From Lama glama (Eukaryota): DNA of 64,000 nucleotides. Each line of letters opens with the position of its first letter. Positions within the stretch are counted from its first letter, which is position 1. The DNA is taken from contig CM052816.1 in NCBI GenBank assembly GCA_028534125.1, forward strand, positions 55,368,001 through 55,432,000, read 5' to 3'. The position numbers and the translations under genes are program-made. Below, one piece after another: positions 41,703 through 64,000 of this stretch. Below the pieces are notes generated by a model, which had not been told where the DNA came from, did not search any database, and worked only from the letters and a program-made list of their open reading frames with translations.

Positions 41703-42300
41703 GTGAGTGGGTGCTCTGGAGCAGAAAGATGGTCTCTTGGCTCCATTATAACTTCCCTTTGATGTCACCACAACCCAGTCCTGGGACTCTGTGTCCTCAC
41801 CTCCAATTCCCTTCTCAACCCTCAGCACCATGACTTTCAACTCTCAACTCATGACATAACAGCTTTTTATTGGTGGGCACAGTGAAGAGAAAGTTTTTAA
41901 ATGAGTCTTGATGAACAAACTGTTTCAGTTAGTTCATTATCTCCTCTTCCAGGACCAAGTATTTTCTGAAGCCAGCAGCTAGGTTTCTTTAAGTCTGATC
42001 CCAGTACCATTTAACACAAGACTCCCTCCAGTCTTGCCCACTTCTGACCCGCCTAACGTACTGTAATCAAGTGCTCACTTCAGAGAACAAATGTCTTCAT
42101 GTTAATCTCCTGCTTTTATTTTTAAACACTCCTTCATAAATGGCAGAGGAAAAAAGTCTAGTCCCTAAAGAGTTTTATATTCAAGTATTTTATGAATTGG
42201 CTCAACCTCATCATTCCTGGGGGACTTCCCTGGGCCCTGCTGGCACAGGCTAGCTAATTCTCACTGCTCCTTCAGAATGTTATTTCTTACCCTCTAACAG

Positions 42301-42640
42301 ACCCAGCACACCCCCAGCTGGGTTATGCTGGGATTTAACTGTGGTTATCAGCCTGGCTGCTAGCAGAGGAAGTGGGTGGGCTCTTGAGGTGAGCACTGCC
42401 ACCATGCTGGACGGGACTTGGGCAGTGTGGATATGCTGCCCCTGCAGCTCTGAGATTTCAAAGGGGGCCACAGAGCCAAATTTCCCAGGGACATCCACCC
42501 AGATAACATCATCCTTATTTCAAGGTCCCAGGTTCGCCAGCCAGGGAAAGTCAGTGTAAAAGATCTGCCTTGGCTGGCAGTTTCTGTCTCTCTGAGGATC
42601 TTGATTCTAACCAACCAGCCTGGTATCTGCTCCTCATCTG
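42301..42640 (+). pseudogene. Decayed exon: start of C-type lectin domain 2, followed by PKD1-like linker sequence
   Basis: ttcttaccctctaacag acceptor. Reads DPAHPQ/SWVMLGFNCGYQPGC*QRKWVGS*GEHCHHAGRDLGSVDMLPLQ (cf. PKD1 AWLQAQEQCQAWAGAALAMVDSPAVQ), then SLFQGPRFASQG.../VSLRILIL..P..C (cf. PKD1 MVFPGLRLS...QLRLQVYR). Confidence 0.6.
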
Positions 42641-43292
42641 TGCCGGCTTTCACTGCAAGAGGCCACAGCAGATACACATAGATACTATTGTTAAATAAAT
42701 GAATAAATGAATAGCACTGAACTAGCAGTGGTTTGGGATTCCACCACAGAGGTCATTAAAAAACTTAAGTTTTGTATTACTTCTAAACAAAGCAGAGAAT
42801 ACAGATGAAAATATTAGAATCAATTTTTCTAGAAAAATATTCTCATTATCTGATAAATCATAACCATGAAGTATCAAACAAAGTATGTTTTTATAGTACT
42901 TCTCATGTCTTTTGTAAAACAAGAAACTGTAAATAGTATGTATAGATTACTACATTAGAATTATTTCACATAGAATAAAATAATGGGGAAATTCAAAGTT
43001 ACATTGTTTAGGGCTAATTATAAACCATTTTTAATGTAATGGGCAGAAAGCTGAATATGCCCAAATTTATATTTATCATGCATTGAAAACTAGAAGCTTG
43101 ATACACTTTAAAGAATCTTTAGTAAGCAAATTGAATTAGCAGAATAAAGTAACAGAAAACATAATGTGGGGTTCTGGAAAGCAATAGGAAGACATGACAT
43201 TTAACGTACCTAGAAAACTTGGGCACAAAATCTTGTTTGGTAAATGAACTATAATTTCACTATCAGAATGTTTGTCTTTAAAAATATCTCAG

Positions 43293-43396
43293 GCGTTAAT
43301 ATCACCAAGTGAATCAGAACCAAATAGTTGAGCAAAACCTCAAAATGTGAAGTCAAGACATTGCATAAAAACCTTTCTGACCCAGAGTAGCTGAAG
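43293..43396 (+). pseudogene. Possible decayed exon of the PKD1-like cysteine-containing linker
   Basis: AG at 43291-43292, AAG|gtaaaa donor. Fragments SPSESEPNS and KCEVK/HCIK, collinear with PKD1 GSEPES...WCPGANICLP. Weak. Confidence 0.3.
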
Positions 43397-43489
43397 GTAA
43401 AAAGGAGAAGTGAAAAAGCCACAAGTGAAAAATAAATGGCCCAAAACCTCTTAAATGTTCTATACAAATAATCAGATTATTTGCAAATA

Positions 43490-43798
43490 TAAGACCCCTA
43501 CATTTCCAATGTTAAAAGCAAAGGTAATAAGTACTCAAAAATTATGCCTTTCTAATTTCACAATTTTCTGTTATCTATGCCCCTAAGACAATACCTGCTG
43601 TGTCTCTACGGTGGAAATGCTGTTTAATGTTGTGCTACTATGCATCTCTACCCAACTCCGCAGTCAGTAACATCACGTTGGTAGCTTGAATTCCACCATG
43701 GAGAGAGTATCTACAACACAGAAACTGGAGAACACTATAAATCAGAGTTTTTTCTTCCTTCAGAGACCTGGTTGTTAAACATTTACCAGCACACCCTG
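43490..43798 (-). mobile_element. MER33-like hAT element
   Basis: cagtaacatcacgttggtagcttgaa...ggttgttaaacatttaccagcacacc. Confidence 0.65.
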
Positions 43799-43996
43799 GC
43801 AACACTCTTTCAGGCCCTAAAAATTTAAGAAAGGTCTCAGTCTTCCCTGACTCAGGACCGAAATCCTGAATATTCTGGAATCCACACCAGCTGACAGGTG
43901 AGGTCTGAGTCCACACTAACAGTGTTCGGTATGCCTGCTCTTTTACTGTTCCTGGAGCCAAGCACTGCATGGTGCCAACATCATAAAGAGTGAAAA

Positions 43997-44152
43997 AAAA
44001 TTTTTTAACATTTTTTATTGATTTATAATCGTTTTACAATGTTGCGTCAAATTCCAATGTAGAGCACAATTTTTCAGTTATACATGAACATATATATATT
44101 CATTGTCACATTTTTTTCTCTGTGAGCTACCATAAGATCTTGTGTATATTTC
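43997..44152 (-). mobile_element. Young camelid L1 3' terminus next to the gap
   Basis: Reverse complement of the 37320-37440 sequence type. Confidence 0.75.
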
Positions 44153-44652
44153 NNNNNNNNNNNNNNNNNNNNNNNNNNNNNNNNNNNNNNNNNNNNNNNN
44201 NNNNNNNNNNNNNNNNNNNNNNNNNNNNNNNNNNNNNNNNNNNNNNNNNNNNNNNNNNNNNNNNNNNNNNNNNNNNNNNNNNNNNNNNNNNNNNNNNNNN
44301 NNNNNNNNNNNNNNNNNNNNNNNNNNNNNNNNNNNNNNNNNNNNNNNNNNNNNNNNNNNNNNNNNNNNNNNNNNNNNNNNNNNNNNNNNNNNNNNNNNNN
44401 NNNNNNNNNNNNNNNNNNNNNNNNNNNNNNNNNNNNNNNNNNNNNNNNNNNNNNNNNNNNNNNNNNNNNNNNNNNNNNNNNNNNNNNNNNNNNNNNNNNN
44501 NNNNNNNNNNNNNNNNNNNNNNNNNNNNNNNNNNNNNNNNNNNNNNNNNNNNNNNNNNNNNNNNNNNNNNNNNNNNNNNNNNNNNNNNNNNNNNNNNNNN
44601 NNNNNNNNNNNNNNNNNNNNNNNNNNNNNNNNNNNNNNNNNNNNNNNNNNNN
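44153..44652. other. Assembly gap (500 N)
   Basis: Run of N. Confidence 1.
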
Positions 44653-44852
44653 CAACTGCAAGGTTTAGAACACCTGGAGCTTGTATTTTGTAACCATATT
44701 CCTCACATTACCTACTACGTGGTAATTCTTTTTTAGCTAAGAGTAGTACATGCTGAAGAAACTAAACAGAGAAATTAATGTAGAAATGAATGGTGGGGCA
44801 GCTCTCTATTCAATATTTTACTGTTAATTATAAATTTGCTGCATAATTTCAG

Positions 44853-44970
44853 TTCCTAAGGAAGCTTAAATTTTGTTCTAATTATGGGAGACGAGTGGTG
44901 TGTATCAGAAGCAGCTGCTGCAGAGAGAGTTTTTGCTAACAGTCATTTCCAAATTATATACACACAAATG
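44853..44970 (+). pseudogene. Decayed exon with PKD1-like REFL motif
   Basis: aatttcag acceptor. FCSNYG/...YQKQLLQREFLLTV versus PKD1 ACANG...YALWREFLFSV. Confidence 0.45.
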
Positions 44971-45559
44971 ATTCAGCTTTTTCTTTTCACTTCAACTTTG
45001 ATGTGTGTGGGTTTGTAATTTCTTCACCTACAATGTAAAGAGAACTCAGTTAATCTCTCAAGATTTTATCATGCCTAGTCACTTCATTTTCTCTAATCTA
45101 TGAATAGCTGTGCAAGATAACCCAGCTTAAAATCACTTTTTAAAATATAGGCATAGAAGGAAGGACAGAGAAGGGAAAAAGGGACTGAGGGAGAGGAAAG
45201 AGGGAAGAAAAAAGATGAAAAAGGAAACAAGGAAGGGATAAAAAAAAAGATGACTAGAGGAATGGAAAGAAGTTTGGACAGAGAGTAGACTACTAGAAGA
45301 GTACAGAAGGAAGAGAAAAATGCAACTTCCTGGGTTGTTTCTGCATTAAAACAACACATATTGACCTAACAATGAAGTGTTAGCTAAAATGTTATAGCTT
45401 GCAGTTAGACTTTCCAGGACCATTCCTGATTTCCTGTCCCCTAGTAACTGTGAGGCCTTGGACAAATTATTTTCCAAGCCTTAGATGCCCCATCTGTAAA
45501 ATGGAGTTAATGGTAATACCTGCCACCTAAGTCTGACATCAGCGAGAGGAAAATAAGAA

Positions 45560-45975
45560 ATATAATGGGATACCATCACACCTAGCAGATAAGCAAAAAT
45601 GTTATTACCCAATAACAGCAAGTGTTGTTGAGGAGGTCAGGAAAAAAAATTCTCATATAGTTGATGGGAATATAAAGTGGAGAGCAATTTAACAAGAGGA
45701 AAAGTTGGAAATGCACAAACTCTGACTCAGCTATTCCTCTCCTAGGATGTCCCCTAGAAAAACTCTTGTACATGTGAACAAAGAGACACGTACAAGAATG
45801 TTTACCACTGCATTATTTATAATTGCCCAAAATAGAAAAACTCCAACATCCCTTAACAGAAAAATTGATAAATGATAATATATCCATATAGTAGTGAAAA
45901 TGGATGGTGTAGAGCCACTTGTATCAATTTAGATGATTTTCTTGCACAAATTGTTAAGTAAGAAAAAAAAAGAAT
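45560..45975 (+). mobile_element. Old L1 3' fragment
   Basis: gactcagctattcctctcctagga...gaaaaactcttgtacatgtgaacaaagagacacgtacaagaatgttta. Confidence 0.7.
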
Positions 45976-46194
45976 CAAGTTTCAGGTTTTAGAATGTCAA
46001 GGCAGAATCATAATGGAATCAGAAGAGGAATGAATTTCACCCAGGGGCCTGAATATGAAGCTGGATACAATAACTAATGTAATCTTGGTCATACATAAGA
46101 TAGAAATTTTTTTTAATATTAGGATGAGGCATTTAAAATTCCACATGAAAATCCATGTGTGATATGGGAGGAGGGAAGTGAGCCTCAAAGCAGT

Positions 46195-47200
46195 AGAATG
46201 TGGTATTCGTTCTTTTTGTCTGCCCAGCATCCCTATCCTTTAATTTGTTAACCATAATTTTTGTTTCTGTCAATCATAATCCCCCTTGAACCTCTATCTC
46301 TGACCAGTGACTGAACGTAAAATCCAATCTAAATCAGACACCCTCTGTCTCCTAGGAGTTTGAGCCTCGGGTGGAATTGCAAAAAGATACAAAGTGACGC
46401 CAATATCCCCCAAGAGCGCACGACTGATCTGGTCACAGGCTGATTACACTGGACTTTCTCTTTCTAAAAGGAGTAGCAATTTAAAATCACTATAATTGAC
46501 ACTTATTTTGGATCTGGATTTGCCATGCCTGCCTGCTATGCTTTGCCAGTGAAACCATCCATGGTCTTACTCACCATCATGGTGTCCCATAAAATGTTGC
46601 TTCTGGTCAAGGAACTCCACCTACAAGGGAGGAGAGGCAATGGGACTCACTATTCTATACTCCACGTTGATGGTGGTTAATTCTGCATTACAGGATATAA
46701 CCTGCAGAACACTGCTGTGGAGCCGTGCAGAGCTAGATGCAGCTGGATTTGGAAATGTAGCAGTAACTGAAGAGATTTGGCCTATCTTTGGGAAGGCACG
46801 TGCATGCTTTCAGGTGTACAAAGAAAAGAGTTGCATTAAGTGTTTTTCCTTTCTTTCCTTCTCTTTATCAGAAGTAAACATGGGAAGTAAAGTGTGCTTT
46901 GATATTGGGCAGCCAATAAAATGGATTGTAGTCAAGCTTTTTTGGCTGCTGAACATTATCCCCTTCCCAGTGGGTCTCAGTGGGAGGCACATCACCTAGA
47001 GCATTTAGCTTCGGGGAAGGGAATCAGATGCTGAAACTGAAATTTTGGATGTGAAGCTAGAGATGCAGTGGTGAAATTTAGGTGGTGACAATGGCAACAA
47101 CACACTCTAAAATCTAAGGCCAGCAAAAGTTGGAAAGAGTCACTACTTACATTAATTCTGTCATGGACCCTATGGTGATGTCTTCAAATTATCTGGCCTA
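46195..47200 (+). mobile_element. Deleted ERVL/MaLR-type provirus remnant with integrase fragment (~46400-46650)
   Basis: WSQADYTG/ITIIDTYFGSGFAMPA/TIHGLTHHHGVP*NVASGQGT..REERQW corresponds to ERVL integrase (WQVDYIG...IDTYSGYGFA...HGIPHSIASDQGT...RQW). Outer boundaries approximate. Confidence 0.7.
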
Positions 47201-47540
47201 GGATTGATACATGTCACTTTCCAAAACTAGGCATAACTACATCTGGTATTTTTCAAAAAAGCACTTGATTGTAGAATAGTAACTGCACAACATGCGGCCC
47301 ATTCTCCCTGTAAGCTGCCATGCTTTTTATACGCACTTGACTATGAGGGAGCCTCAGGCATAATACTTTAAGCTGAGCCTAGAGGCTGAGCTGTACGGGA
47401 CTCTCATAGCCCTCCTGGCTACAGTTTAGCAACTCTGACCCCCGCACTCCCTGAGTTCTGCACCAAAGAACGAGTTATGCAGTCCCTACGGAAGTCTCTA
47501 TCTTATCATGTACATAACCTGCTGTGTGGCGCATTCTCAG

Positions 47541-47761
47541 GGAAGCTGTCACAGCCACGCTCCAGGGCTTAAGCATCACGGCTTCTCTGGAACTGTCGAT
47601 GAGGAGACAATCACGGCACAAGGATGGAATCAAAGGCTCACCAATTATCCCAAGAAAAAACACTGTCTCCCCACCCCGACCCATTCCTTGTGTTCAGATT
47701 TGGTTGTGGCCAAGGGTCAGAATGTGAGATGCCTGCTGTGGACATTACTACATAATAAAAG
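47541..47761 (+). pseudogene. Decayed kringle-domain exon (kringle 1)
   Basis: cattctcag acceptor. GSCHSHAPGLKHHGFSGTVDEETITAQGWNQRLTNYPKKKHCL/HPDPF...SECEMPA/CGHYYIIK fits kringle C....G..YRG.....CQ.W...YP...HC..PD...EC..P.C. Confidence 0.55.
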
Positions 47762-48839
47762 GTAAAATTTTTACATTTTGATTCAGCAACTTTGACTCTA
47801 TGCTTGAAAACAGCTGCATCATGATGGCATCATCAAAACGCCCCTGGGGTCCAAATAGCTGAGCCAAAACCATAGGTGAAGCCCTCTGCTTCACTTCCGT
47901 GTCTGTATGGCTCATGAACGTTGTGGGTGGCACGTCGGTTAGAAGCAGTCTCCTTGGATCCGCTTTCTGCTTTGCAGTGGCCTCAATGCCTTAAGTTACC
48001 CTTGGGGAGGGCAATGTCAGGGACTTTCTCCTTCCCAAACTGGCTTGCCACTTGAAGGAGGAGATGATCCTTGCTGTCTAGTGACCCACATAGGGATGCC
48101 ACTGTGGTTGCTTATTGACAACAGGTGTGTGGTAGGGTGGAAACTGAGGGCCCCCAACTCTAATTCCTTACTCCCACATCAGAGGGAAGACCTCACCAAG
48201 GGGCTGCGGTTGGAACAGAGCGGGTGTTGGGAGACTGTCTGAGTGTTTGCTTCTTTCCTAACTCTCTCACAGCCCTCTTCCTTTAACCTTTCCTCTTCTG
48301 CTAGCCCTGCTCCAGCCTCTGCCAGCTTCTCCCCTGGGGTCTACCACAATGCCCCATGAAAACAGTCAAGTCTCAATCCTTATCATTTCTCTCCAAGTCT
48401 TGCAGATTCTAGAACTCCAGGTGTTTAATGCCAGAAGGTTTCTACTGTGCACTGCTCGGCCAAGGGGAAGGGTGGGTTCTGTTGGCTCTGGGCTCGGGGA
48501 GGGGAGAGTGAGAGATGGAAGGTATCCTCTACTTTGGGCTCTAACACATTCCCTCTAAAAGGCTCTGAAACATTAAACACATTTTGTCATCATAACAATT
48601 AATTTTCACCCATAAACCCATATGATAAATTCATAGCATAACTTTGATGTTATTTTACACTAAAAAATATCACAGCCTTATTATGACTAGAATATTTGAT
48701 CCTTCTTGTGCTGGGTTACATGACAAAGCATCCTACATTAACTGACGATAAAACCTGCCATGCCCAAATTGACTCTGTTACTTGATTTCCCTCCTAACTA
48801 TGGGAGATAAGTGATGAGTATCTTTTGCCCCACTACACA

Positions 48840-48985
48840 TGTTATGGCTGTCTGACTGACCATGACTTTTTGATGAGCTATTATAAATGTCAAATTTGGT
48901 AAAATGGTAAAAGGTGCTGCTGGAAGTATGCATATGAAGTGAACATTCACAATTTTATCGTGGGTTATCATATAAGAAATCACCT
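48840..48985 (+). pseudogene. Possible decayed WSC-domain segment after kringle 1
   Basis: YGCLTDHDF.../KMVK/C/LEVC...QFYRGLSY resembles WSC Y.GC..D...MTV..C...C....YAGL.Y; needs several frameshifts. Confidence 0.3.
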
Positions 48986-49104
48986 GAATGGGCTGCTGTC
49001 TCACCCCCAGTATTTTCACATTTGCCAATGAGGAGCTGGTGTTCTCTACGATTTTATATGTGCCAGTCTGCTTTCCATCCCCTGACCTCCTACATGATTT
49101 TTTT

Positions 49105-49735
49105 CTAATTCTTATACATTAAGGTTCACTTTTTGTGCTGCAAAAGTTCTATGAGTTTTGACGAATGCACAATGGCATGTATCCACTATTACAGTACCAC
49201 ACAGAATAGTTTCACCACCCTAGCATCTCCTGCTCTTCACCTGTTCACCCCTCACTCCTCCTTTGAATCCATGGCAACCACTAATCTTTTCACTCTCTGT
49301 ATAGTTTTGCCTTTTCAAACTGTCATGTAGTTGGAATTAACATAGGATGTAGCATTTTCAGACTGGCTTCTTTCACTTGACAATATGCATTTACGTTTCC
49401 TCCGTGTCTTTTTATGGCTTACTCCTTAATAGCCCATTTCTTTCCATCACTGAATAATATTCTATTGTTTGAATATACCACCATTTGTTTATCCATTTAT
49501 ACATTGAAGGACATCTTAGATGCACACAGCTTTTAGAGACTATGAATAGAGCTGTTATAAACATTCATATGCAGGGTTTTGTATGGACGGAAATTTTCAA
49601 CTCATTTGGAGAAACATCTGAGAGAGTGATTTTTGGACGATATAGTAAGACTATGTTTGGCTTTTAAGAAACTACCAAACTGTTTTCCAATTAACTGGCT
49701 GTACCATTTTGCAATACTACCAGCAACAAATGATA
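49105..49735 (-). mobile_element. L1 (L1MC/MB-like) 3' end
   Basis: gttctatgagttttgacgaatgcacaatggcatgtatccac...cagactggcttctttcactt...tttatccattt. Confidence 0.85.
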
Positions 49736-49814
49736 GCTGAAAAAACAGATTTTTTTAAACTGCAAGAACAAATAACCTTCAATTACACAGAATCTCATTT
49801 CTATAAAACAGCTC

Positions 49815-49990
49815 TGTCATGAGAATTAGGTAGACACTCAAGTTTCCAAAGTTCATACTTTCTTGGGGGTAAATCATGAAATTCAATAACTCTGTGGAGA
49901 CAGGACTTATGCTTGAGGGAACAGAAGAGTATAATTCTTTGCCTTCCCTGCACAGCAAACACATTCTATGCACATTTACATTCACAGTTT
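49815..49990 (+). pseudogene. Possible decayed copy of the PKD1-like linker domain (N part)
   Basis: FPKFILSWG*IMKF/ITLWRQDLCLREQKSIILCLPC; same FP....G.I..F / WR / CLP order as the PKD1 linker. Confidence 0.25.
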
Positions 49991-50364
49991 TCAAAAAAAC
50001 TGCCATAGCAGCATGCGCCTGCCAGCTTCTTACTGTGAAAGGTTACTGGGAGACCTGAGCAAATAAATGTATACTTAATCCCTTGCACACTGATATTTTA
50101 CCTATTTTAAATGTAAGGAATTTCAGGAATTAAAAAGATTGAATGATTATCTCCAGGAGACTAAACGCAACACAAAGAGAGAAGGGTGTTATAATTATGG
50201 CCCTTTACCTGAGCCCTGGGTTCAAAATTTGCCTGTTATATACTAGCCAGGTGCCACTAGGCAAGTTTCTTAATTTCACTGGATCCTGATTTCCTAACTG
50301 CAAAATGGGAAAAACAATAGTAATACTCTCCTTATAGGGTAGTTGTAATCAAGCAGTATATAAT

Positions 50365-50590
50365 GACTATCAATGCCCAGCTCCCTTTCTCAATTCAAGA
50401 CAACTCTGAAGGGTCATCCCAGCTCCAGAGCTCTAAGTAGAACCAGCAGGATCTTCTGTTGCAATTGCATCTTATTTCAACTTTTCCCTCTGCCCAATCC
50501 TGCCACCCTCAATCCCTTACAAGTGTTATTTCCAAGAGCTCTTCCTAATGAACTTCTGCACACAAATCTCCATCTAGGGAAATCTGACCG
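50365..50590 (+). mobile_element. LTR33-like fragment
   Basis: caactctgaagggtcatcccagctccagagctc...ctctgcccaatcctgc...ctaatgaacttctgcacacaaatctccatct. Confidence 0.6.
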
Positions 50591-50660
50591 AAGCAGCTGG
50601 CATCACCATCATGACCACTATTACTGTTGCTGTTGTTTATTCCAAGCCCCACGTCCCTAG

Positions 50661-50800
50661 CTGTATGTGTGCTGCACCAGTATAGCCCTCAGGCCTTCGT
50701 CTGAAGGACGACTTCTTCCCTGTGGACAGAGTGGTCCTCAACCTCCCCAAAGTGATGACCCACCTGAATTGTTCAACCTATTCTTAAGTGTTGGTCACCT
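50661..50800 (+). pseudogene. Possible decayed exon, C part of repeated linker domain
   Basis: gtccctag acceptor. QAF(V)/LKDDFFPVD parallels EPLFVLKGEIL at 61351. Confidence 0.3.
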
Positions 50801-51523
50801 CCTGAGCCTAGCTAGTAACGGTGGAGTATGAGGGGCAAGGATGAGCAAAAAGAGCAGGAAAAAAACTTTCAGCTGATGAAAGTTCCCCAGTACAACCTAG
50901 GCAAAATCAACAGAATAAAATAGAATGTGAGATTTCAAGAAAGTTTTAATGCAGAAGGCAATTTATCAGAAATAAGTCCCTTACCATGAAAGCTGGGATG
51001 ACTGGAAGTTAGTTATACAAAGAGAGATTTAATAATAGGCTCCAGAATGGTGGAATTTTCAAAGCTGTGTTGATTTGTACACAGCCAAAGGCCTACAAAA
51101 GAACCCCAGAGTATAGAACCCATGCCTTAGAATGGCAGCAACCTTGAGCAGGGAAATAAAATGATACCTAATGGCACTGGGGTCCAAATGGGCGATAAAG
51201 AGAAGAAATTGTGTTATTAAATATCAAAGTTCAGTGGTTCCCTTTGCTTCCATTTAGCAATTTACAGAATATACACATATTTGTATATATAAATATGCAG
51301 AACAGGTATGTTTTCTTTGAAAACATTCAGAGATATTTATAGTAAACATACCCATGGCTCTCCTGTTTTGCGTGTTTCCCCAAAAACTATGTGTTCACTC
51401 TTCCTGCCAACTTAAAACTTGGATCTTTAAAAGCAGTAATAAAAGGGGCCTCAACACTAATAGTCAACCTGTCAAGAAATTTTTCTTATTAAAACTGGGA
51501 TCTCAGTGTCTCCTTTCCTGCAG

Positions 51524-51790
51524 ACAGCTTTAATTATCTGATGACTGCAGTTTTCAGAATTATTCTAAACAGCTTTCTGGAATAGTGGCTATGAGGGCAC
51601 AAACAGCGGGCACCAGGAAAAGCTGTCCAACAAAATGAACATATTTGGTGACCTCTAGGAGTATACCACTTGCAGTGAATCAATTCCAAATGTATAAAAC
51701 ATGCACTCATTTCAAATTTCCATCTCATAGCTCATTACAAAATACACTTATGTTTAAACTACTTATGAACAAAGGAATTACAAGAAAGTG
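51524..51790 (+). pseudogene. Decayed exon, repeated linker domain with IW(R)P motif
   Basis: Strong acceptor tctcctttcctgcag. att tgg TGA cct at 51643-51654 reads IW*P (CGA>TGA would restore IWRP), followed in frame by NFHLIAHYKI. Confidence 0.4.
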
Positions 51791-52349
51791 TAGAGACAGA
51801 TAAGAGATTCAATTAAGCCAGCTCTGCTACTGTTGAATTCACCAAGACACGAAAATTATCCCTTCTCAGTTAGCCCATGTGCTAAAAGCCCAGGTCATAA
51901 ACTGGGCCATCTCTACTAATGAACTAAACCTACTCTGGCCAAGTTCAAATCTCTCTGTGGAGACCATGGGGAGGGTCATGGCTAAGAGCAACCAGATACA
52001 TAAAAGTTTTGTTCACTGACTCCTAGGGACCTAGCAGAAGTGATGAATGTCCCATTACCTTGAATACCAATGGGGACTGTGAGACAAATGGATAAGGAGA
52101 TGTGATCCTGAGTTTGAGACCATCCAGAGATTCAGGCAGAATACTGGGTATCTTAAGTGGAAACCAAATTAAGTTTGATGTGACTTAAATTTGAGAGGGA
52201 AGGTGCTAAAGACAGAGTGACACACGATAATATTTGGTATCCACCACACAAAAGCCAACCGAGAGAGAATAAATATTAAAGAATTTGTTTGTGACTTTAA
52301 AAGAAAAATAGCTAGAAATCTTTAATTCTATGACACCTCTTCCACTGAA

Positions 52350-52444
52350 GAGGTCAGAACAATTAATACGCACATCTAATGCGTTCTCACAGTTTGAGTT
52401 TCCTAATAATTGAGATTTTTCCAGGGATATGACTCATGATTCAC
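52350..52444 (+). pseudogene. Possible decayed exon, C part of linker domain
   Basis: IIEIFPG(D) versus PKD1 VLMLPGD; donor cac|gtaaga at 52445. Confidence 0.25.
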
Positions 52445-53154
52445 GTAAGAGATTTTGAAGGAGTATTTTTAAAAAGGAAAGAAACACTGATAAATCTAAT
52501 CAGGTCATTTCTGTCCACTGTTTAGTGGGAGAAATACAGCCAGTCTGGAGTCATTGTGACTGCTCTCTGGCCCAACACACCATTAGGACTGGAGTTGAAA
52601 AACCTCTTGCTAGAGCCATGTCCCTCATTTGGCAGTAGCCACTGGGAGGTCTGTATTGAGAAGCATTCAGAGATCCAGTGCCAGGTGGGTGTGGAAGGAT
52701 GCTATGATAGATTTATGTCTCACATGCATAAAGGAACGTAACAAATATCTGACAACAAACTTTCCCTAAGAGGTATTCCTAGAGAAGGCTGTCCGCCCAG
52801 AACTGACAGCCTCTCCATGTTGCCAAGCTGCTGACTAGAGCAGATTAGATGGTTATGTCACATTACCCTTACCTGGCTCTCAGAAACTGGGCCAGGACCA
52901 ACATTAATGTATAGAAGAGAGACATGGGATGATTGGTGTTCAGCTCACCTTGATGCAGGGTGGAGTCTTCAGGCCCCTTCACCTGTCTCATTCCTTCCCA
53001 GGGAGCTGGAAGTCTTAGTAAAACTGTTAAGCCATGAAGATTAATCCTTGTTAACAAAAGAAAAGTTTGCTTGCATTTGGGTACTCCTATTGCAATGAAG
53101 GACTTGAGGAAGCTGCTGACACCAAGAGCCCACTACTGCCCATTCAGGATATGA

Positions 53155-53582
53155 CCAGTGGATTCACTTCCTGTGGCTGTAACAATCACCACAAATTGGT
53201 GGCTCAAAGCAACACACATTTATTCTCTTAGAGCTTACAGTTCCAGAGGTCGGAAGTCCAAAATCAGTTTCACTGGGCTGATATTAAGGTGTCACAGGGT
53301 TGCTCTCCCCTCATTGGCTCTAAGGAAGAACCCATTTCCCTGCCTTTTCTGGCCTCTAGAGCTGCATTCCCTGCCTCATGGCCCTTTCCTTCATCTTCAA
53401 AGCCAGCAGAGTAGTGTCTTGCTTTAGCCTTCACACTGCCTTCTTCCGTACTCAAATTTCTCCCTGCCTCCCTCTTAGAAGAACACTAGTGATTACATTT
53501 ACACCAGATAATCCAGGATAATCACCCCATCTCAACATCCTTAATTTAATCAAATCTGCAAAATCCTTTCTGCCCTATAAAG
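53155..53582 (-). mobile_element. MaLR LTR, MLT1C/D-like
   Basis: gctgtaacaatcaccacaaattggtggctcaaagcaacacacatttattctc...ataatccaggataatcaccccatctcaa. Confidence 0.8.
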
Positions 53583-53599
53583 ACAAAAAAGGGGAACAA

Positions 53600-54172
53600 A
53601 AGGAATAGAATATGAGTATGATTTTATATGGTTAGAACATCTCTGGACTACACACACAAGTGCAACATAAGTTAACCCTAGAGAAGGTACCTGGGGGCTG
53701 AGGGTCAAGGGTATGAGAATCAATTTCCTCTGGGTACTCTTCAAATATTTTGAATTTTCTACCATATGACTATTTTACTTCTTTAAAAAATAATGAAAAT
53801 CACAAACTGGACAACTTGGAAAGGCCAGTCTAGCTCCATAGTTCTTTGTGAAGTCAGCAGACACAGCTCAGCTTCTCTTTCTGTTCAATCTTGCTTTCTT
53901 TCATTTTCATCCAGAAGTACTGACCTCAAGGGTGCTCGCTAATAAACACGCTGCCTTCTAAACTTCTTCTCAGGGTGTGCTTCCCAGGGAAGGAATCTTA
54001 CAGCTACTCTTTCAGCAAATTCATAAAATTTTCAAAAGTAAGATATTTTAGCTGTAATTGGTTAAGATTACTGACTCCACCTCAACTTCTGCTCCTTCCT
54101 GCTCCCCATCCCATTGTGTACTGCTGGAGTGGCAACGGCATTTGGGGTGTGGTTAAGTTTAGTTGGGAATAT
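53600..54172 (+). repeat. Local duplication copy A (old L1 3' piece + LTR33 piece + Arthur1 5' piece)
   Basis: Collinear with 62940-63465 over ~520 bp, including the inter-element junctions. Confidence 0.9.
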
Positions 54173-54179
54173 AACCAAT

Positions 54180-55750
54180 GAGGTTAAAGTCCATTGTTCT
54201 TGTCTAAATTACATACATTAACTTGTCCTAATTATAACATCAATACCTATTCATAGCAGAATTTTGCAGAAAATAAAAATCATCTCTGAAACCTCCACTG
54301 TTAATAGTTCGGTATATTCCCATACCATCTGACTCCGTTGTCCTTGAACTAACTCCTTGGGACATTCCCAGTTCAGTCCTGTCAAGAAATCTTTACTCAG
54401 AAAGTCAGACACAATCTTTAAATACCTGTTTTTTTGGATGAAAAGACCAAGATAACAAAAAATCGAAGTGCTGCATCTACAATCATTCATTAGAGTCAAT
54501 ACTAAACAGTGAGACTTTGGCCTCTTCCTTCTCATCACTGTCTTCCAGTTATCATCGAAGACTTCTTGGTATTCCACATCCAATTAGACACACACAAATT
54601 CCTAGTCGGGATCTCAATGATTCATTTGTTACATATGTTGATGGCACATCAATATCTGACCATTTTTCCAAGTCATAAATCAACATCTTCCTTTCCCTAG
54701 TCAAAAGCTCCAATGCTATTATACATCATAAATTGGAATACAAATTGATCAATTATTTAGTCTGTCAAATCCCTAAGAGAAAGAGCAAGAATAAGCCTAA
54801 TGCAATTATTTTTTTATTACCAAGCATGCTTTTGATGGTGAGAAAACTAACAGGTGTTTTTCCTCACTGTTGGTCAATTTGAATCTCACCCACAAAGTAA
54901 AATCAACTTTAGTTATTACACAACGAATCAATAACCACAGCGCTGTTACACTTCAGGGTGGATTTTTTTTCTTTATTGACCTAACAGAGACTCATGACCA
55001 AGTGGAAGAGTGTTTAATGAGCTTGAAAATGAAGCCATTCATTTGAACTGAAGAGAACAACACATTCTCCCGTCACCTCATATTAACCCACTGTTCCTGT
55101 TATGGAGAAAACTAGAGGTACTAATAATGTCGAGGGCCCAGGTACAAACACTCCAAGTGCAGTACCTTTCAGGTCTTCAGCACTGCTGATAAACACTAAG
55201 CAAATTTTTCCTCAGTGACTCCTCAGTTTCTAGCCTCTTCACAGATTTCAGTACTGCTGGACCTCCTGAATTACGGTCTTACTCCATCCTATTTCACTGA
55301 GCATAATTCTGATCCAGCTGTTAGGATTTGGATATTCCCAGAACTGGATTCAGACATGAGATAGCAAGCAGTAGCCAGCTATATTAAGCATTAAAACAAT
55401 TCTGGGGTAAACCAGAAATATAATGCCACAAACTCGGGTTTCCAGAATCGATCCTTTATATAACTGGCAAAATGTAATTTTGCTGATGTAGAAAAGTCTT
55501 GAGTGATGGAAAAAATACTCCTTGCCAGAGTCAACCCATACCCTTTGAGTGTTTTTCTGTGACACACAAGTTACATGGCCCAACAGTCTATCTCAGCAAC
55601 ACTGAGACCAGTCATCTCACAGAAGCAAAGCAGTTGATGAAATTACTGAGCTAAAGAACGCACAGCATAGTGCATTTATTGAGAAGAAAGAAAGTCTGAG
55701 TTCTGTAATGTACCTGCCAAGAATTTGTCTGAGTTCTTGTTTATCCAAGA
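54180..55750 (+). pseudogene. Possible decayed large Ser/Thr/Pro-rich (mucin-like spacer) exon
   Basis: About 1.5 kb with no repeat I recognise. Successive + frames give S/T/P-rich peptides: PSDSVVLELTPWDIPSSVLS, SLESILNSETLASSFSSLSSS, PTVPVMEKTRGTNNVEGPGTNTPSAVP, DSSVSSLFTDFSTAGPP. Confidence 0.3.
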
Positions 55751-56189
55751 AAACAAGAGAACAAAATGCACAGACAAGTGGGAAAAAATAGCTTTTAAAC
55801 AGAACAAGACTTCCTCACCAAATTTCTATTACCTCTATCATTAGGAAATTGGTTGTAAGGCTCAATAGGAAAAAACTGGTAGATGAAAGAGAACTTCAAG
55901 CTAGTAAGAATTTTTCTGAACAGTCAATATTTGTTTAGAACATTAAAAATATTGTAAGATTATTATTAATAGAAAAATCAGTTCCTTTCTAACCTCAAAA
56001 AAAGCTTAAATATTTAAATACTATTGACTTGAAGAGGCCACAGAGGTATCAGGTAGCCTGGGATACTGATACATCTCACTCCAGAGTAGCTATATATCTC
56101 TGGATCTTTCCTCTGCCCCATATTTAAACATCCTCTCTCAGTTTTCATCTATAAATGACTAATCCTACAAGCACAATTTCTATACCCGC

Positions 56190-56390
56190 AATGGGCTCAG
56201 ATCCTGACTCTGCCACTTTTTTACATGATCTTGGTTAAATTTCCTAACCTCTGTATGCTTCAGTCTCTTCAGCTGTAAAATCTGATAATCATAGTACTAC
56301 CTCACATGGTTAGTGTGGTGACTAAATGTTCAAATACACGTAAAGTGCTTAGAATGCCTGGGGGACAGTAATCACTCAATAAATTATAAT
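56190..56390 (+). mobile_element. MIR SINE
   Basis: atcctgactctgccactt...cttcagtctcttcagctgtaaaat...gtaaagtgcttagaa. Confidence 0.7.
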
Positions 56391-56467
56391 GTTGATCATT
56401 ATCATAACTTCGGTGAAGATACATGGATTTAATTCAGTATTATTTTACTTGATTTAGGTGTTGCTGT

Positions 56468-58430
56468 TTTAAAATAGCTTTACTGGGGTATAATTGACAT
56501 AAAACACACTACACACATTTTAAGCATACAATTTGAGTTCTGACATATATACTCATCTCAGAATCATGACCACAATCAAGATAGTGAACATATTTATCAT
56601 CTCAAATTTTCCATGTGTTCTTTGGAATCTCCCTCCTGCATCCAAATTGCCCCACCCTAGGCCCCTCCACCACAAGGCAATCACTATTCTGCTGTCACTA
56701 TAGATTAGTTTGCATTTTCCTCAAATTTTATGTAAATGTAATCATATCATATGCACTCTTTTTTGTCTAGTTTATTTCACTCAGCATTATTAATTTGCAA
56801 TTAATCCATGTCACCACATGATTCAATAGTTTATTCCTTTCTAATTGCCCGGTAGTATTTCACTGCATGGATGTATCACAATTTGTTTATCCATCCACAT
56901 ATTGATGAACATTTAGGATGTTTGTAGTTTTCAACTATTACAAATAAAACTGCTATGAACATTTGTATTCAAGTCTTTGTACAGAAATAGACTTATATTT
57001 TACCTGAATAAATATCTAGGGATAGAATGGCTAGATCACATGCTGGGTAAATATTTAACTTTTTCAGAAACTGCCAAATGGTTTTTCTAAGTGGTTGTTC
57101 TATTTTACATTCCCACCAGTACTGTATGAGAGTTCTAATTCCTTCATATCTTTGTCAACACTTGGTATGTTCAGTCTTTTTGATTTTAGCCATTCTACAA
57201 GGTATGTAGTTTTATCTCATTGTAATTTAATTTCCATTTCCCAATGATGGTGACCATTTTTTCAGGTACTTATTTGCCATCTGTATGTATTCACTGGTAA
57301 AGTGTCTATTCAACTCTTTTGCCCATTTTTCTAATTGGAAAGTTTGTTCTGATTGATTTAGTGTTCTTTATGTATTCTATATACAAGTCCTTTAGCAGAA
57401 ACATAATTTGTTAAATTTTTCTCACCATGTGTGGTTTATTTTTTCATTCTCTCAACAGTGTTCCTCAAAAAGCAGGTTTCAATTGGGATGAATTTCAACT
57501 TATCAATATTTCATTTTGTGAGTCATGCTTTTAGTGTCATATCTAAGAATATGACCAAAAACTCCAAAGATCTTTCTTTTTGTTCCAGCAGTTTTACAGT
57601 ATACATTTTATATTTAAGTCTATGATCCCTGATTTTGAGTTAATTTTTGTATATGGTGTGAGGTATGGATTAAAATTCTTTTTTTACATATGAACATCTA
57701 ATTACTCCAATACTATTTTTTTTAAGATTATACTTTCTCCACTGAATTGCCTGAGAACCTTTTTCAAAATTCAATTGTCATTATATGTGTATCCATTTCT
57801 GAACTCACTCTTTGGTTCCACTGATCTATTTGCTTATCTGTATGCCAATACCATACTGTCTTGATTAGCGTAGAGTTATAAAATTTTGAAATCTAGTAGG
57901 GTTAGTCCTCCACATTTGTTCTTCTTTATGAAAGATTTTTGGGCTATTCTAAGTATTTTACATTTTCATGTAAATTTTAATAGCTTTACTGAACTGTATG
58001 TAACTTGCATACTGCAAAGTTTACCCATCTTAAGTGTTTAATTCTATGGTGATTACCATGTTTACAGAGTGGTAACACCACAATCTAATTTTAGAACACT
58101 TTTCTTACCTGAAAACCAAAACTTACGCCTATTAGTAGTCACTCCATCCTCCTCCACCAACCACTGATCAGTTTGCTTTCTCTATATATTTTCCTACTCC
58201 AGACATTTCATATGAATGGAATCATATAACATGTGGCCTTTTATGTCTGGATTATTTAATTTAGCATAATATTTTTTAAGTATTTGTTTAAACTGACTAA
58301 CTTGTATTAATATCTCATTTCTTTTAATAGCCAAATAATATTCCATCATATGGAAATACCACATTTTGTTTATCCATTTATCAGTTGGTGGATATTTGCA
58401 TTGAACTATTTCCACCTTATGGCTAACATG
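56468..58430 (-). mobile_element. L1 (L1MB/MC-like) 3' regions, two adjacent minus-strand pieces
   Basis: gggtataattgacataaaac...ttacattcccaccagtactgtatgagagttc...ttgagttaatttttgtatatggtgtgagg. Confidence 0.85.
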
Positions 58431-59220
58431 AACAATGGGAATGTAAAACGGTATAGCCACTTTGGAAAAATAGCTTGGCAGTTTCTTATAATGTTAAACA
58501 TTCACTTAACTTACAACCCAACAATCATATTCCTAGGATTTATCTTAGGAAAATTAAAAATTATGTTCACACAAAAATCTGTATATGAATGTTTAAAGTA
58601 GCTTTATTTGTAATATTCAAAACCTGGAAACAATTCAAATGTTCTACATGGAGTGAGTGGATAAACAAACTGTGGCATATCCATACAATGGAATATTACT
58701 CAGCATAGGAATGAACTTTTGATACATTCAAAATTTGGATGGATCTCAAGGACATTATGCTAAGTGAAAAAAAGTCAATCTCAAAGGGCTACGTAATTTG
58801 TTATTTCATTTATACATAACATTCTCAAAGTGAAAAAAATTTTAGTGATAAGAGAACAAAGAAGTAGTTGTTAAGGAGTTGAGGAAGAGTGTGACTATTA
58901 AGGGATAACACGAGGGAGTCTGTGGTGATGGAACATTCCTATCCCTATTGTGGTAATGGTTACTTAAATCTAAACATGCAACAAAATATCACAGTATCAT
59001 ACACCAAAAGGTGAGGAGGACTGCATACAAAACTGGTGAAATTCAAACATGGTCTGTACCTGAATTAATGGAATTGTACCAACATCAATTTCCTGGTTAT
59101 GACAATATACTGCTCTTATGTAACATATTATCATTGGGGGAAGCTGAATAAAGGGTATGCAGGACCTGTATCTCCATTTTTGCAACTCCTTGTGAATTTT
59201 TAACTATTTCAAAATAAGAG
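58431..59220 (+). mobile_element. L1 (L1MC-like) 3' end
   Basis: tgggaatgtaaaacggtatagccactttggaaaa...ggataaacaaactgtggcatatccatacaatggaatattactcagc...ccaacatcaatttcctgg. Confidence 0.85.
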
Positions 59221-59656
59221 AGTTCTTTTTTAAAAGTTAAGCCTAGTCTCTACTATACTTTGGGGAATTTAGGAGAAGGAACTGTCCTATTAATAGGATG
59301 AAGTAAACAAGAAGTTAAGAATTCAGTACAGGTTGGCTAACCCAACTACTACTTTACTGAGGCTATTAAAAATATATACATATAGTGTTAAGCACATTTG
59401 ACTGTCCTTTACGATTGGATTACTGCAGTCTGTTGATTATTTTCAAAATTTTGCAAAAAAAGAAAGAACCCACCTAATTACTATCCTCCTCAGTGGAACC
59501 ATGTCTAGATCACCTGATTCTTACAATCCTTCGTTATTCTTCTTTGAGCATTCCCCCTTTCTGCCAAGGTGTGGTCAGTAGGAAGTTAAGTGTACTGACC
59601 ATCCCTGGCCAATTAAACCAGTAAAGCCTCAAAAAAAAAGATATGCACTTAAAAAG

Positions 59657-59728
59657 CATATATATATATATATATATATATAATATACACTTGTATATAT
59701 AGAAGTGTATATTATATATATACATATA
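59657..59728. repeat. (TA)n microsatellite / AT-rich tract
   Basis: atatatatat run. Confidence 0.9.
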
Positions 59729-60753
59729 AATTTCTCCGGTGTTACGGCAACTGTATATGGCCATTTGACAGAGTTCTGGCCAAAAATATGTAAGCAGAAG
59801 CCTGCTGGTGCCTGCTCTTTTTGCCTTGTTCCTGCCTGGTCTGTGGATATGATATGGAGGTAAAAGCAACCAATTTGCAACCGTTAGGATAAAAACCATG
59901 GACTAAGCACGGTGGCACAAAAGGAGTCTGGACTATACACCTCCAAATTTGTTTTATGACAAAAATAGGTCTGTATCCATTTAAGTCACTACAGTTTAGT
60001 CAAAGCTGAATGCCATCTCTACGAGGAGGAAAATATACCCATTCTCCTAGAGCAGTGGGTCACCAGCACCAGCAGAGGGACAACTGTGCCGTGCAAAGCA
60101 TTAGGGGACTCAGCCAGAGAGGCACCGCTGTGCAGATGTGACAGGGAGGGTGGAGGACAAGAGGGTGGGGACGTGGGGTTTACCATGAGGCAGCACTGCA
60201 GGACCTCTCCAACATTTCTGAGCACACCTTTGGGAGGGTAAATAAAGCCAGTAGGTCTTGGGTCATGATAATTTGGGTTACATACGGGCAACCTAGTTTC
60301 TATGCTGGCCCCCAGGATCACCACTGTGGGAAGGGCAGGATGAGACCAACTAGAAACCACTCACTACACACCAAGCTAAGTTTATCTTAGTAGTCATTCC
60401 CTCCCTAGGTACCTAAGGAAGTAAGGTCCTTTCTCCTGGGGGTTCTGACATTGAGACGAGTCTGCAATCCAAGCTTCAGGAAACATACCTAGTCCCCACT
60501 CACCATCAGCACCCTCTGAATTCTTTTCCCTCTTGCCTTGAGGGGGCAGAGGCTGCTCTGTTATAATCTAACTTGGTCTCTTCTCACTTCTTTCCACCAG
60601 CTTTGAAAACTTTTATGACATTATTTCAGATTTTCTCTATCTACATTGGGTTTTTTGGTTTTTGTTATTTTTTTTTTTTTTTGCCATTTTTAAGGTGTGA
60701 TTTCCATGCTTTTGTAACATGCTTTTTATAAATCTTCCTGTATCTCCTTGCAG

Positions 60754-61150
60754 TTATGCCTTGGACTCTGAGGTTCTGGTGCAACACTTCCTATGGCTGT
60801 CCTATGTATCATATAGGCCATGGGTCAGCAAATTGGTGAACAGTTTTATTGGTTCACTGCCAAACCCACTGTTTACTCATTGCCTATGTATGGCTGCTTT
60901 TGCACTAAAATGGCAGAGTTGAGTAGTTGCAACAGAGACCCAGTGGTCCCACAAAAACCAAAATATGTCCTATTGGTCCTTTCCAGAAAAAGTCTGTCAA
61001 TCCCTGACATAGGCACTCAAATATTCTGAATCGATATAAAACATCAGCATATCCAAACTCCAATTTGTATTGTTCACATACTGGCCAGTGAGAGAAAACT
61101 CTAAATCTACCTGTTTGGTGATTGGTTTTTGCCATATTTTCTCTAAAAAG
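60754..61150 (+). pseudogene. Decayed kringle-domain exon (kringle 2) interrupted by MER58A
   Basis: tctccttgcag acceptor. After removing 60819-61014 the frame is continuous: SGAT/FLWLSYVSYRHSNILNRYKTSAYPNSNLYCSHTGQ*/ENSKSTCLVIGFCHI (kringle SG.TC..W.....YP..NL..YC.....P.C....YC.I). Confidence 0.5.
60819..61006 (+). mobile_element. MER58A (hAT-Charlie MITE) with 8-bp TSD
   Basis: catgggtcagcaaa...ggcagagttgagtagttgcaacagagacc...cagaaaaagtctgtcaatccctg; TSD atataggc (60811-60818) / acataggc (61007-61014). Confidence 0.9.
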
Positions 61151-61350
61151 AACACTTATTCTCTTAATGACTCCCCTCAACTGCTATATGATATAGTGAA
61201 TTAAGAACCTGATATTAAAATATAGTTTATTATTTGCAATATACGGTATGGCTTTCGCACATAAAGCGTAAGATACATGTGAAGTATCATTTGTGGATTT
61301 GTTATACTAGTCTTTCTGAATTGTTACTGTTAATATTGGCTTCTTTTTAG

Positions 61351-61566
61351 AGCCACTTTTTGTTTTGAAAGGAGAAATTCTCCTAAATTATTTATATAAA
61401 ATGTATTATCACCCTTTTGTTAGATCAGTGAACTAGATGACAGCTCAATTTAAGGCATTACAAAAGGGGAATCATTTGTGGGTTTGGAGGAAAAAAATGC
61501 CTTTCAGTATAGAGATCATGTGATACTGAATAAGAAAACTGTAAGCAAATAAATAATTGTGTGACA
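61351..61566 (+). pseudogene. Decayed exon: end of linker domain + N-terminal half of a WSC-like domain
   Basis: ttctttttag acceptor. EPLFVLKGEILLNY.../GESFVGLEEKNAFQYRDHVILNKKTVSK*IIV*Q, with two stops at the C-x3-C positions of WSC TV..C...C. Confidence 0.4.
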
Positions 61567-61639
61567 GTAACATGTCTACTCACCGAAATGAGATTTAAAA
61601 AGAAAAAAACAAGCAGTCAACAGAAGAAATAAAAAGGGA

Positions 61640-61965
61640 ATGCAAATACATTTTCAATCGATTCAAAATAAAGTTGCAGAATTCAGGAAGCCTGAAAACA
61701 ACGCTCCCCGAAGTTAATTGTTTCCTCGTCAGGATGCAGAAAGACCACACTAATGGTATGAGTAGAAACTGGAACAATTGCTAGAAAGCAATTTTGCAAT
61801 GTATATATTTACAGTCTTGAAAATATTCATACCTTTAAACCCAATCCGTTTCCTGAGGAAATAGCCTGAAATATGGATGGAGATATGTGCACAATGATGT
61901 TAATTGTAACATTACTCATCAGCAAAAATAGAAATAATAGAAATTAATTAAATGTCTATTATAGC
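61640..61965 (+). mobile_element. Old L1 ORF2-end/3' UTR fragment
   Basis: gaaagcaattttgcaatgtatat...cttgaaaatattcatacctttaaaccca. Confidence 0.55.
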
Positions 61966-62939
61966 TCAGGCATTGGACTGAATGCTGGTGATTGAATAAA
62001 AGGCTTTTGGCGAGGGAGTAAAATTTCATCTGAGACCCAAAATAACTGAAAATTAACCACCCAAGAGAGCTAGAGAGAAAATGTGTGTCTCTGTGCAGCA
62101 TGGGAGGGGAAGGAGAGAGAGAAGGGAGAGGCTGGGGGCCGGTGATAGTTCTGATGATGCGGGCAGGGGAGTGTCTTGTAAGAACATTCCAGACACAGGG
62201 ACCAGGAATATTTGGAATATAAATACCAAACTAACAAGTTAAAGTGCAGGCATCCAATATAGCAGACAACTGTTTATGGGTCTAATCTTTTTTTAAAAAA
62301 ATACTTGATTTTTATCACACGTACAACTGGTAAAAATGTAGTATATGGGGATCTGTCCACCCTAGATATATCCCTGGGAAGAGGGATGGGCTGTTGTATT
62401 TTCTAAAACTATTTAACTGGAGCCCCAAAGTATTTTCTGAACTAAATCTATTCCTAGAGTTATTTTATGAGCTAAAATTCAGAAGCAAAGTGTTTCACTT
62501 TCAGAATGAGTAGCAATGCAAGAATCAGGAAAAAATATGCCTCATATTCAAGTCTATAGTTGCTCACATAAAAACCAACCATCAGTAGTGTTAATCCTGG
62601 CCCTATTTTTTTTTAAACAGATTTGATGGAATGGGAACATCTGGGGATATAAAACATCTTTCTCTAGATGCTTTACTTAATTACTCCCTCCCTACTCCCC
62701 AAGGCTTGCTGTTTCTCTTCAGTACTGATAGGTCTGGTTAGTGTATTCAGGACTGACAGATGTTAACATAAGGGGAAGCTGAGTGAAACGTATATGGGAA
62801 CTCTCTGTACTATTTCTGAAACTCTTCTGTAAGTCTGAGATTGACTCAAAATAAGTATTTTTAAAAACAACAACAATGAAGAACCTATGTATATACTATG
62901 CTGCCATTTGTATAACAGGGAGAGAAATGAAATAAAGAA

Positions 62940-63465
62940 ACAGACATATGAACATGATTTTACGTGGTTAGAATATCCCTGGAAGTACAGAACTGGTAAT
63001 GTAGGTTAACTCGGGAGAAGGCACCTGGGGGCTGAGCGTCTAGGGTAAGAGAATCAATTTCCTCTGGATATTCTTTTTGAATATTTTGAATTTTCTACCA
63101 TTTGATTATTTTACTTCTTTAAAAAATAATGAAAATCAAAAACCAGACAACGTGGAAAGGCCAGTCTAGCTCCAGAGTTCTTCGCCAAGTCAACTGCTCT
63201 TTCTGTCCAATCCTGCTTTCTCCCATTTTCATCCATAGGTATTGACCCCAAGGGCACTCAATAATAAACACGCTGCCTGCTCAACTTCTCAGCGTGCTTC
63301 CCAGGGAAGGAGTCTTACAGCTATTCTTTCAGCAAATTTATGAAATTTGCGAAAGTAAGATATTTTAGCTGTAACTGGTTAAGATTACTGTCTCTATCTC
63401 AACTTATGCTCCCTCTTGCTCCCCATCACATTGTGTGGTGCTGGAGTGGCTATGGCATTTGGGAA
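62940..63465 (+). repeat. Local duplication copy B
   Basis: Matches 53600-54147 (gaaggcacctgggggctgag...gaatcaatttcctctgg...ggaaaggccagtctagctcca...aaagtaagatattttagctgtaa). Confidence 0.9.
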
Positions 63466-64000
63466 TAAATTTCATCTGAGTTGATGGGATACATTTATGT
63501 AGTTTACAGAAGCTTCCTGTATAATCAACAGTTATGGATCGCTGTCCTATTGTGGGAATGGTTTCCAGGAATATTACTCGCACCCACTGTGCCAATTCAG
63601 TGTCAGGACACAATGGTGCAAGGCGAGGTGTCGTACTGAGATGTGAATGTGTCCTATAGCACCAGATACTGGGATTTTGCGGGGAGTGGTGAGAAAACAC
63701 TATGAAAATGTAAGGAGTCAGATGCTAATCTCTGGAAAATCCTTTCACCATCAGACGTATAAAATGATAGGTAAAAGGTACGGTTCTCAACAATGCCTAC
63801 TCAAAATGGAATTTCTCCTGTCAGATAACATAAAACTCATAATATGCCATGATAATGAGGATAACCCATGAGGCCTGGTAAATGACTGTCATCAGTTCAA
63901 AAAGTACTTAAGATTAGTTACTGCACAAGAAAACTTGAAATGCCCAGAGATCTTATAGCTCACATATAAAAGAAATTTAACAGGAATTTTCCAAAATTTG
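63335..64000 (+). mobile_element. Arthur1-like hAT (Tip100 group) deletion derivative: 5' non-coding region joined to transposase C-terminal region
   Basis: aaagtaagatatttt...ggaatggtttccaggaata...cccactgtgcc...catcagacgtataaaat follows the Arthur1 5' sequence as I recall it; from ~63826 NIKLII...LVNDCHQFKKYLRLVTAQENLKCPEIL..Y.RNL..IF.NL is hAT transposase. Confidence 0.8.

Follow-up and report, generated by a model that had tools for sequence, protein, structure and literature searches.

Does a transposon copy in the llama genome mark the time at which a gene was lost? The locus considered here lies in a 64,000-nucleotide stretch of Lama glama DNA (the window), which is mammalian DNA of about 40% GC. 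The original prediction saw in it a miniature transposon of the MER58A family inserted into an exon encoding a kringle domain, and read the insertion as a timestamp: the gene would have been dead, or killed, before or around the placental radiation. The answer depends on what the element is, on how old it is, and on what kind of DNA it entered. The features on which the argument turns are collected in Table 1.

Table 1. Features of the element, of its target and of the exon proposed around it (positions are those of the window).
Feature	Position	Strand	Remark
Non-autonomous hAT-type miniature DNA transposon, very probably MER58A	60819..61006	+	188 bp
Target-site duplication, left 8-bp copy ATATAGGC	60811..60818	+	
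Target-site duplication, right 8-bp copy ACATAGGC	61007..61014	+	
Left terminal inverted repeat, decayed (9/16 complementary to right end)	60819..60834	+	
Right terminal inverted repeat	60991..61006	+	10 of 14 protein alignments stop at 61004
Internal deletion site, about 38 bp relative to another copy	60833..60842	+	one protein (P0007)
Left flank (start of the proposed exon; protein searches gave no homologue)	60754..60810	+	
Right flank (remainder of the proposed exon; protein searches gave no homologue)	61015..61087	+	
Splice-acceptor-like site (pyrimidine tract and CAG)	60734..60753	+	our own weight-matrix scorer
Weak splice-donor-like GT	61088..61093	+	weight matrix
Element-supplied acceptor-like site, first exon base 60987, score 9.1	60967..60986	+	weight matrix
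YPNSNLYC, the eight codons that suggested a kringle	61050..61073	+	chance-level motif window-wide

The element itself is sharply delimited. Tested as an 8-bp duplication, the two flanking copies agree at seven of eight bases, and a target duplication of this length is a hallmark of hAT transposons. The sequence between them begins with CA and ends with TG, and its worn 16-bp ends are complementary at nine of 16 positions. These boundaries outscore every alternative tried, with a score of 16 against 13 for the runner-up. A scan of all 6,431,680 start and end pairs lying 150-250 bp apart found 32,334 with CA..TG ends, of which 31 also carry a duplication matching at 7/8 or better; among these 31, only the pair 60819-61006 has ends that are at least 9/16 complementary, the two thresholds (7/8 and 9/16) being the values observed at that pair. 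The predicted miniature element with its 8-bp target-site duplication is thus borne out, as the best of the boundaries tried and the only such pair in the scan.

Its repetitive nature emerges from the protein collections. When the region 60753-61148 was read through its stops and compared by HMMER with 1.84 billion representative sequences, nine matches were found at E ≤ 0.001, eight of them on the element. These eight belong to separate 50%-identity clusters, none has a Pfam family at the cut-off, and they have the appearance of other copies of the repeat translated by chance. Fourteen of the 16 proteins that were fetched align to the element, 12 beginning at 60843 and ten ending at 61004, only two bases inside the right end, so that the right edge is fixed independently. 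One copy (P0007) is longer by 38 bases close to its left end, from which a complete element of about 226 bp (188 + 38) can be reconstructed. For comparison, the supplement to PMC1914374 gives MER58A as 224 bp and MER58B as about 341 bp. The element contains no CpG dinucleotide, and 37 TpG or CpA. Its sequence also appears to resemble the MER58A consensus, and the name was assigned from this resemblance and from the test of length (226 against 224 bp).

The element is very probably, then, a hAT-type miniature transposon of the MER58A family. MER58A is classed as hAT in Repbase, as given in PMC5753468, and appears as DNA/hAT-Charlie in the carnivore annotation of PMC3088541. The copy has in common with the family its 8-bp duplication, its short terminal inverted repeats, its lack of coding capacity and a reconstructed length within about 2 bp of the published one; it differs in the loss of some 38 bp near the left end and in the wear of its ends (9/16). 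Pattern scans of viral, metagenome and prokaryote collections (all of them non-mammalian) gave no match to other MER58A copies or to an orthologue of this one.

How old is such an insertion likely to be? The supplement to PMC1914374 records 12,325 human copies of MER58A with a median divergence of 22.8%, and Giordano et al. (PMC1914374) put the family at rank 116 in their human chronology, between L1MB7 (113) and L1MB8 (122), making it older than L1MB4 (127), L1MB5 (133) and L1MB3 (143). Among the markers reported by Kriegs et al. (PMC1395351), insertions of L1MB7 and L1MB8 occur in every placental tested and are absent from opossum; some of the insertions of L1MB3, L1MB4 and L1MB5 mark later placental splits. 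The published chronologies thus put MER58A before the placental radiation, and its rank close to L1MB7 and L1MB8 makes it likely, judging from the family, that this copy is common to all placentals. For the prediction of an old hAT miniature element of the MER58A family, the hAT type, the length and the family age all fit, and the name itself is very probable.

The case for an exon begins with the flanks. Excision of the element together with one copy of the duplication (196 bp) leaves a plus-strand frame open for 46 codons from 60755, with a stop at codon 47. Excision does therefore rejoin one frame, as had been noticed, though chance can do as much: when 196 bp were excised at random places in the window 5,000 times, with excisions touching N scored as failures, at least one plus-strand frame stayed open over 138 nt in 23.6% of cases. 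The rejoined stretch is also bounded by splice-like signals. The AG at 60753 has a score reached by 41 of the 4,446 plus-strand AGs, the GT at 61088 one reached by 249 of the 3,133 plus-strand GTs, and the candidate exon that they enclose is 138 nt long and symmetric in phase. The surrounding region is pyrimidine-rich, and acceptors at 60601 and 60695 outscore that at 60753.

An AG...GT exon-like frame with scores as high as those observed arose in eight of 4,889 random excisions, the scores having been set after the fact; at generic scores it arose in 96 of 4,875 when the length had to be a multiple of three and in 229 of 4,846 when any length was allowed. This configuration, expected by chance in 0.2-5% of cases, is the best evidence for an exon. 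Simulations of neutral decay, with assumed rates of 0.20-0.25 substitutions per site, bear on it in two ways. Some frame stays open in 46-50% of dead exons, against the background of 23.6%, a roughly twofold preference for an exon. Frame, AG and GT together are retained by a dead 138-nt exon in only 4-7% of runs, however, so that so clean a frame is unexpected for an exon that has been dead since the insertion. The minus strand of 60740-61150, with the element removed, has a frame open for 77 codons and an acceptor-like site at 61080, which illustrates how readily such frames arise.

For a coding exon as target, the insertion would have been null by both of the routes tested. Read through in the proposed frame, it leads to a stop at 60920. 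If instead the element's internal GT...AG segment (163 nt) is spliced out, the frame is kept and a stop falls at codon 30, formed where the right end of the element meets the duplication.

Is the rejoined frame that of a kringle? The loose word YP-x(3,9)-YC, of which the suggestive eight codons are an instance, occurs once in the window, compared with a mean of 0.8 in 40 shuffles. That it should fall within this short frame is less likely, yet it is one of very many motifs that might have been recognised. Over 83 codons the rejoined frame contains two Cys (codons 41 and 78), two Trp (14 and 56) and two stops (47 and 57). The kringle fold has six conserved cysteines (PMC9669250, PMC10341603), paired in three disulfides, so that the frame offers two of the six; decay could have removed some, Cys codons surviving in 57-65% of cases in the decay model. 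No motif of the YCRNP type is present in the six frames of the window, and the Tyr-Cys at the locus is followed by Ser-His; the kringle signature is Tyr/Phe-Cys-Arg-Asn-Pro ... Trp-Cys. Looser kringle and protease patterns likewise have no match at the locus or downstream of it within the window.

Searches with the flanks agree. Each flank, taken in six frames, matched no Pfam family at E ≤ 10, with filters that hide matches above about 0.1, and the flanks matched no PDB sequence at E ≤ 10, the halves being searched separately and without a positive control. A word-indexed homologue search with the left open reading frame returned one candidate, which received no score, and the same kind of search returned nothing for the right flank read through its stops or for the minus-strand frame. 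In the ESM Atlas the best value for the left flank, 0.76, was at chance level. The sole flank match among the representative sequences, P0003, is a tandem-repeat protein that aligns to 21 residues of the right flank through ten summed repeats; it gave no tblastn match in the window at E ≤ 1 and was rejected as chance. These negatives are of limited power, since the halves are short (21 and 27 residues) and were searched separately with no positive control, and since only about 60% of Cys codons would be expected to survive. The claim of a kringle exon around the element finds no support in this evidence: Pfam, PDB and the 1.84 billion representatives gave no kringle match to the flanks, and two of six cysteines are there. 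With the kringle family (PF00051) the frame shares only the loose order Trp, Tyr-Pro, Tyr-Cys, and it differs not only in its cysteines and in the want of a profile or structure-library match for its two halves but also in having no neighbouring domain.

This last point rests on a search of the window for a host gene. On a rough estimate, the window would correspond to human 5q13, at some 72-76 Mb. Read through stops and compared with Pfam, positions 52,001-64,000 in six frames and 38,001-52,303 on the plus strand gave nothing at the cut-off. Among 99 of the 170 long open reading frames the best E value was 0.001, and among 98 further candidates (96 of the 177 predicted exons and two minus-strand open reading frames) it was 0.009, both short of the cut-off. 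Positions 1-38,000 on both strands and the minus strand of 38,001-52,000 were covered as selected open reading frames only, and the window extends just 2.9 kb downstream of the locus. In the parts scanned, none of the partner domains sought (protease, PAN, EGF, WSC/CUB, kinase) was found and no further disabled exon of the same gene was recognised. An exon-like stretch at 62621-62736 (+), CUB-looking by eye and compatible in phase with the candidate exon, was set aside when it found nothing in Pfam, the Atlas or PDB.

Several other features of the window were noted in passing. A 23-nt stretch at 61733-61755 (+) resembles a micro-exon (acceptor 8.6, donor 6.3). The predicted exon that scores highest in the window, well ahead of all others, is at 24944-24998 (+), 55 nt long with an acceptor of 14.3 and a donor of 11.2; it has two open frames, one of which gave no Pfam match. 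The segments 53599-54146 and 62934-63463 form a local duplication, 9.3 kb apart and 82% identical over 552 columns, and both of these copies of about 550 bp hold a small AG...GT exon-like stretch that has no Pfam match and in which, by eye, conservation is not concentrated. The only two matches from Rfam are tRNA-like, at 8418-8491 and 37521-37595 (-), within a pair of repeats that are 76% identical; they are probably tRNA-derived camelid SINEs rather than genes. Positions 1-2000 are GC-rich (0.54) with long overlapping open reading frames, presumably a LINE-1 5' region, and a two-copy tandem repeat of 47 bp with 95% matches lies at 23051-23143.

What, then, did the element enter? We think it probable that this was an ordinary MER58A-type insertion into non-coding, perhaps transcribed DNA, and that the kringle-like word is a chance reading; the judgement takes in two narrower versions, a living non-coding exon and the tail of an L2 element, each considered below. 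Movement by cut and paste, driven by an autonomous hAT transposase whose staggered cut leaves an 8-bp duplication, is established for the family. On this model, and with an age taken from the family, a non-autonomous element of about 224 bp would have been cut out of another site some 100 million years ago by a hAT/Charlie-type transposase whose gene lay elsewhere. The element would have been pasted at this locus, and repair of the 8-bp staggered cut would have duplicated the target. Neutral decay since then could account for the loss of CpGs, the one substitution in the duplication, the worn ends and the deletion of about 38 bp. We infer that the target DNA was non-coding when the element arrived, lying either between genes or within a non-coding transcript, in an intron or an exon.

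In the first of the narrower versions the locus would today be a living exon in a non-coding RNA of reproductive tissue, and the element would lie inside that exon or supply its acceptor. The preserved splice-like sites would then need no protein to account for them, and we regard this version as possible, although not probable. Four RNA runs from one reproductive-tissue study (X1-X4, 780-847 million letters each) contain 0.32-0.39 of 103 words sampled from 60400-61400, a share corresponding to an exon of some 330-480 nt, and an ATTAAA lies at 61214. A share of about 0.39 would also result, however, from full coverage by a relative differing by about 3% (0.97 to the power 31), and the figures come from a single study as word shares only, which carry no strand, boundaries or junctions. 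Seven runs from three more studies (X5-X11) have shares of 0.07-0.17, which are no evidence of expression; the best datasets, which are DNA-like and of unstated kind, contain 0.91 of the 60400-61400 words. The locus may thus be transcribed today. A transposon within a non-coding exon is itself ordinary (PMC3636048), and 3' splice sites can come from MER58A copies, as in the COL4A5 pseudoexon of Alport syndrome (PMC7951965). The present element, too, has a predicted acceptor-like site, with its first exon base at 60987. The COL4A5 site was activated by mutation inside a known gene (PMC7951965), whereas no host gene was recognised around the llama locus in the parts of the window scanned.

In the second version the target is the decayed 3' tail of an L2 retroposon, so that the flanks themselves derive from a repeat. 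We consider this rather unlikely. Five L2-like tails were picked from the window by motif, and for two of them the end can be aligned in register with the rejoined target; in one case the score exceeds that of 477 of 485 random segments. Older elements are known to be interrupted by MER58A copies, as described in PMC7951965. The better alignment is driven in part by a T-rich stretch, however, and for the other 81 of 490 random segments do as well or better. Built from the five tails, a profile finds other tails at 9-23 bits and gives no score of zero or above at the junction.

If the target was instead a coding exon, it need not have encoded a kringle. That the flanks are a fossil exon of some other gene would be consistent with the exon-like configuration, with its 0.2-5% chance expectation, and with stop positions that would make the insertion null either way. 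According to PMC5577775, up to 5% of conserved mammalian lncRNAs come from lost coding genes and similarity is rarely left. We nevertheless hold this reading to be decidedly improbable, for no homologue appeared in the searches, no neighbouring coding exon was recognised, and the candidate acceptor stands in a pyrimidine-rich region where two acceptors up to 160 nt further upstream score higher. The lncRNAs that PMC5577775 lists as syntenic to lost genes include none at 72-76 Mb, the human pseudogene rows covered being the first 30 of 78; the same human list has rows at chr5:67.7-68.1 Mb that are syntenic to a lost coelacanth gene. Were the exon real and transcribed, the locus would join the class of lncRNA fossils described by Hezroni et al. 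2017 (PMC5577775).

That the flanks are the fossil of a kringle exon, from a gene or domain lost on the placental stem, with the insertion as its killer or a soon follower of its death, is in our view very improbable. It would account for a 138-nt rejoined frame lying open between AG and GT and for the roughly kringle-like order of Trp, Tyr-Pro and Tyr-Cys, with the motif in the right frame and 27 codons past the Trp. A Trp-TGA 15-16 codons after the motif is one base from Trp-Cys, the family age of MER58A fits the placental stem, and some loss of Cys codons is to be expected at their modelled survival. Kringle spacing would, however, demand several in-frame insertions and deletions, which are unlikely under neutral decay, and the survival of frame, AG and GT together would be a rare outcome. 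To these are added the shortfall of cysteines (two in 83 codons), the silence of Pfam, PDB and the representative library, and the lack of a YCRNP-type motif in the window. No literature on this locus or on the loss of a placental kringle gene was found in a search that left most subscription journals outside its scope; the supplements of PMC5577775 name lost genes by Ensembl identifier only, and a kringle gene could be among them.

Even a disrupted kringle exon would not make the insertion a timestamp of gene loss. An exon of 138 nt that is symmetric in phase can be skipped in frame, so that its disruption does not imply the loss of the gene. The mammalian MuSK gene offers a precedent, having lost its kringle and survived (PMC3927609). 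It demonstrates that kringle loss does happen in mammals, and that what went in MuSK was a domain and not the gene. MuSK lies on human chromosome 9. As no search lent support to a kringle gene, the element cannot yet date the loss of one, and this part of the original prediction is as unsupported as the kringle identity on which it depended. Very improbable, too, is a more elaborate reading, in which the flanks would be the last readable exon of an undescribed kringle gene, or the kringle exon of a larger one, kept at the equivalent of 5q13 in monotremes, marsupials or birds, disabled by MER58A on the placental stem, and surviving within a non-coding RNA of reproductive tissue, which would explain why its splice sites are still legible.

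We conclude that the locus holds a new copy of a known element and that the kringle story is unsupported. As it stands this matters little, for it is one camelid copy, with a well-kept duplication, of a common family that has about 12,000 copies in human. Should an intact exon be found in a marsupial, a monotreme or a bird, the locus would reveal that a kringle gene or domain had disappeared, an event so far unrecorded, and would set a minimum age on it; even then the insertion would put a 'no later than' limit on the disappearance of one exon only, since a gene can survive the skipping of an exon that is symmetric in phase. Should orthologues confirm the insertion across placentals, its presence or absence could be used as a marker of the placental stem.
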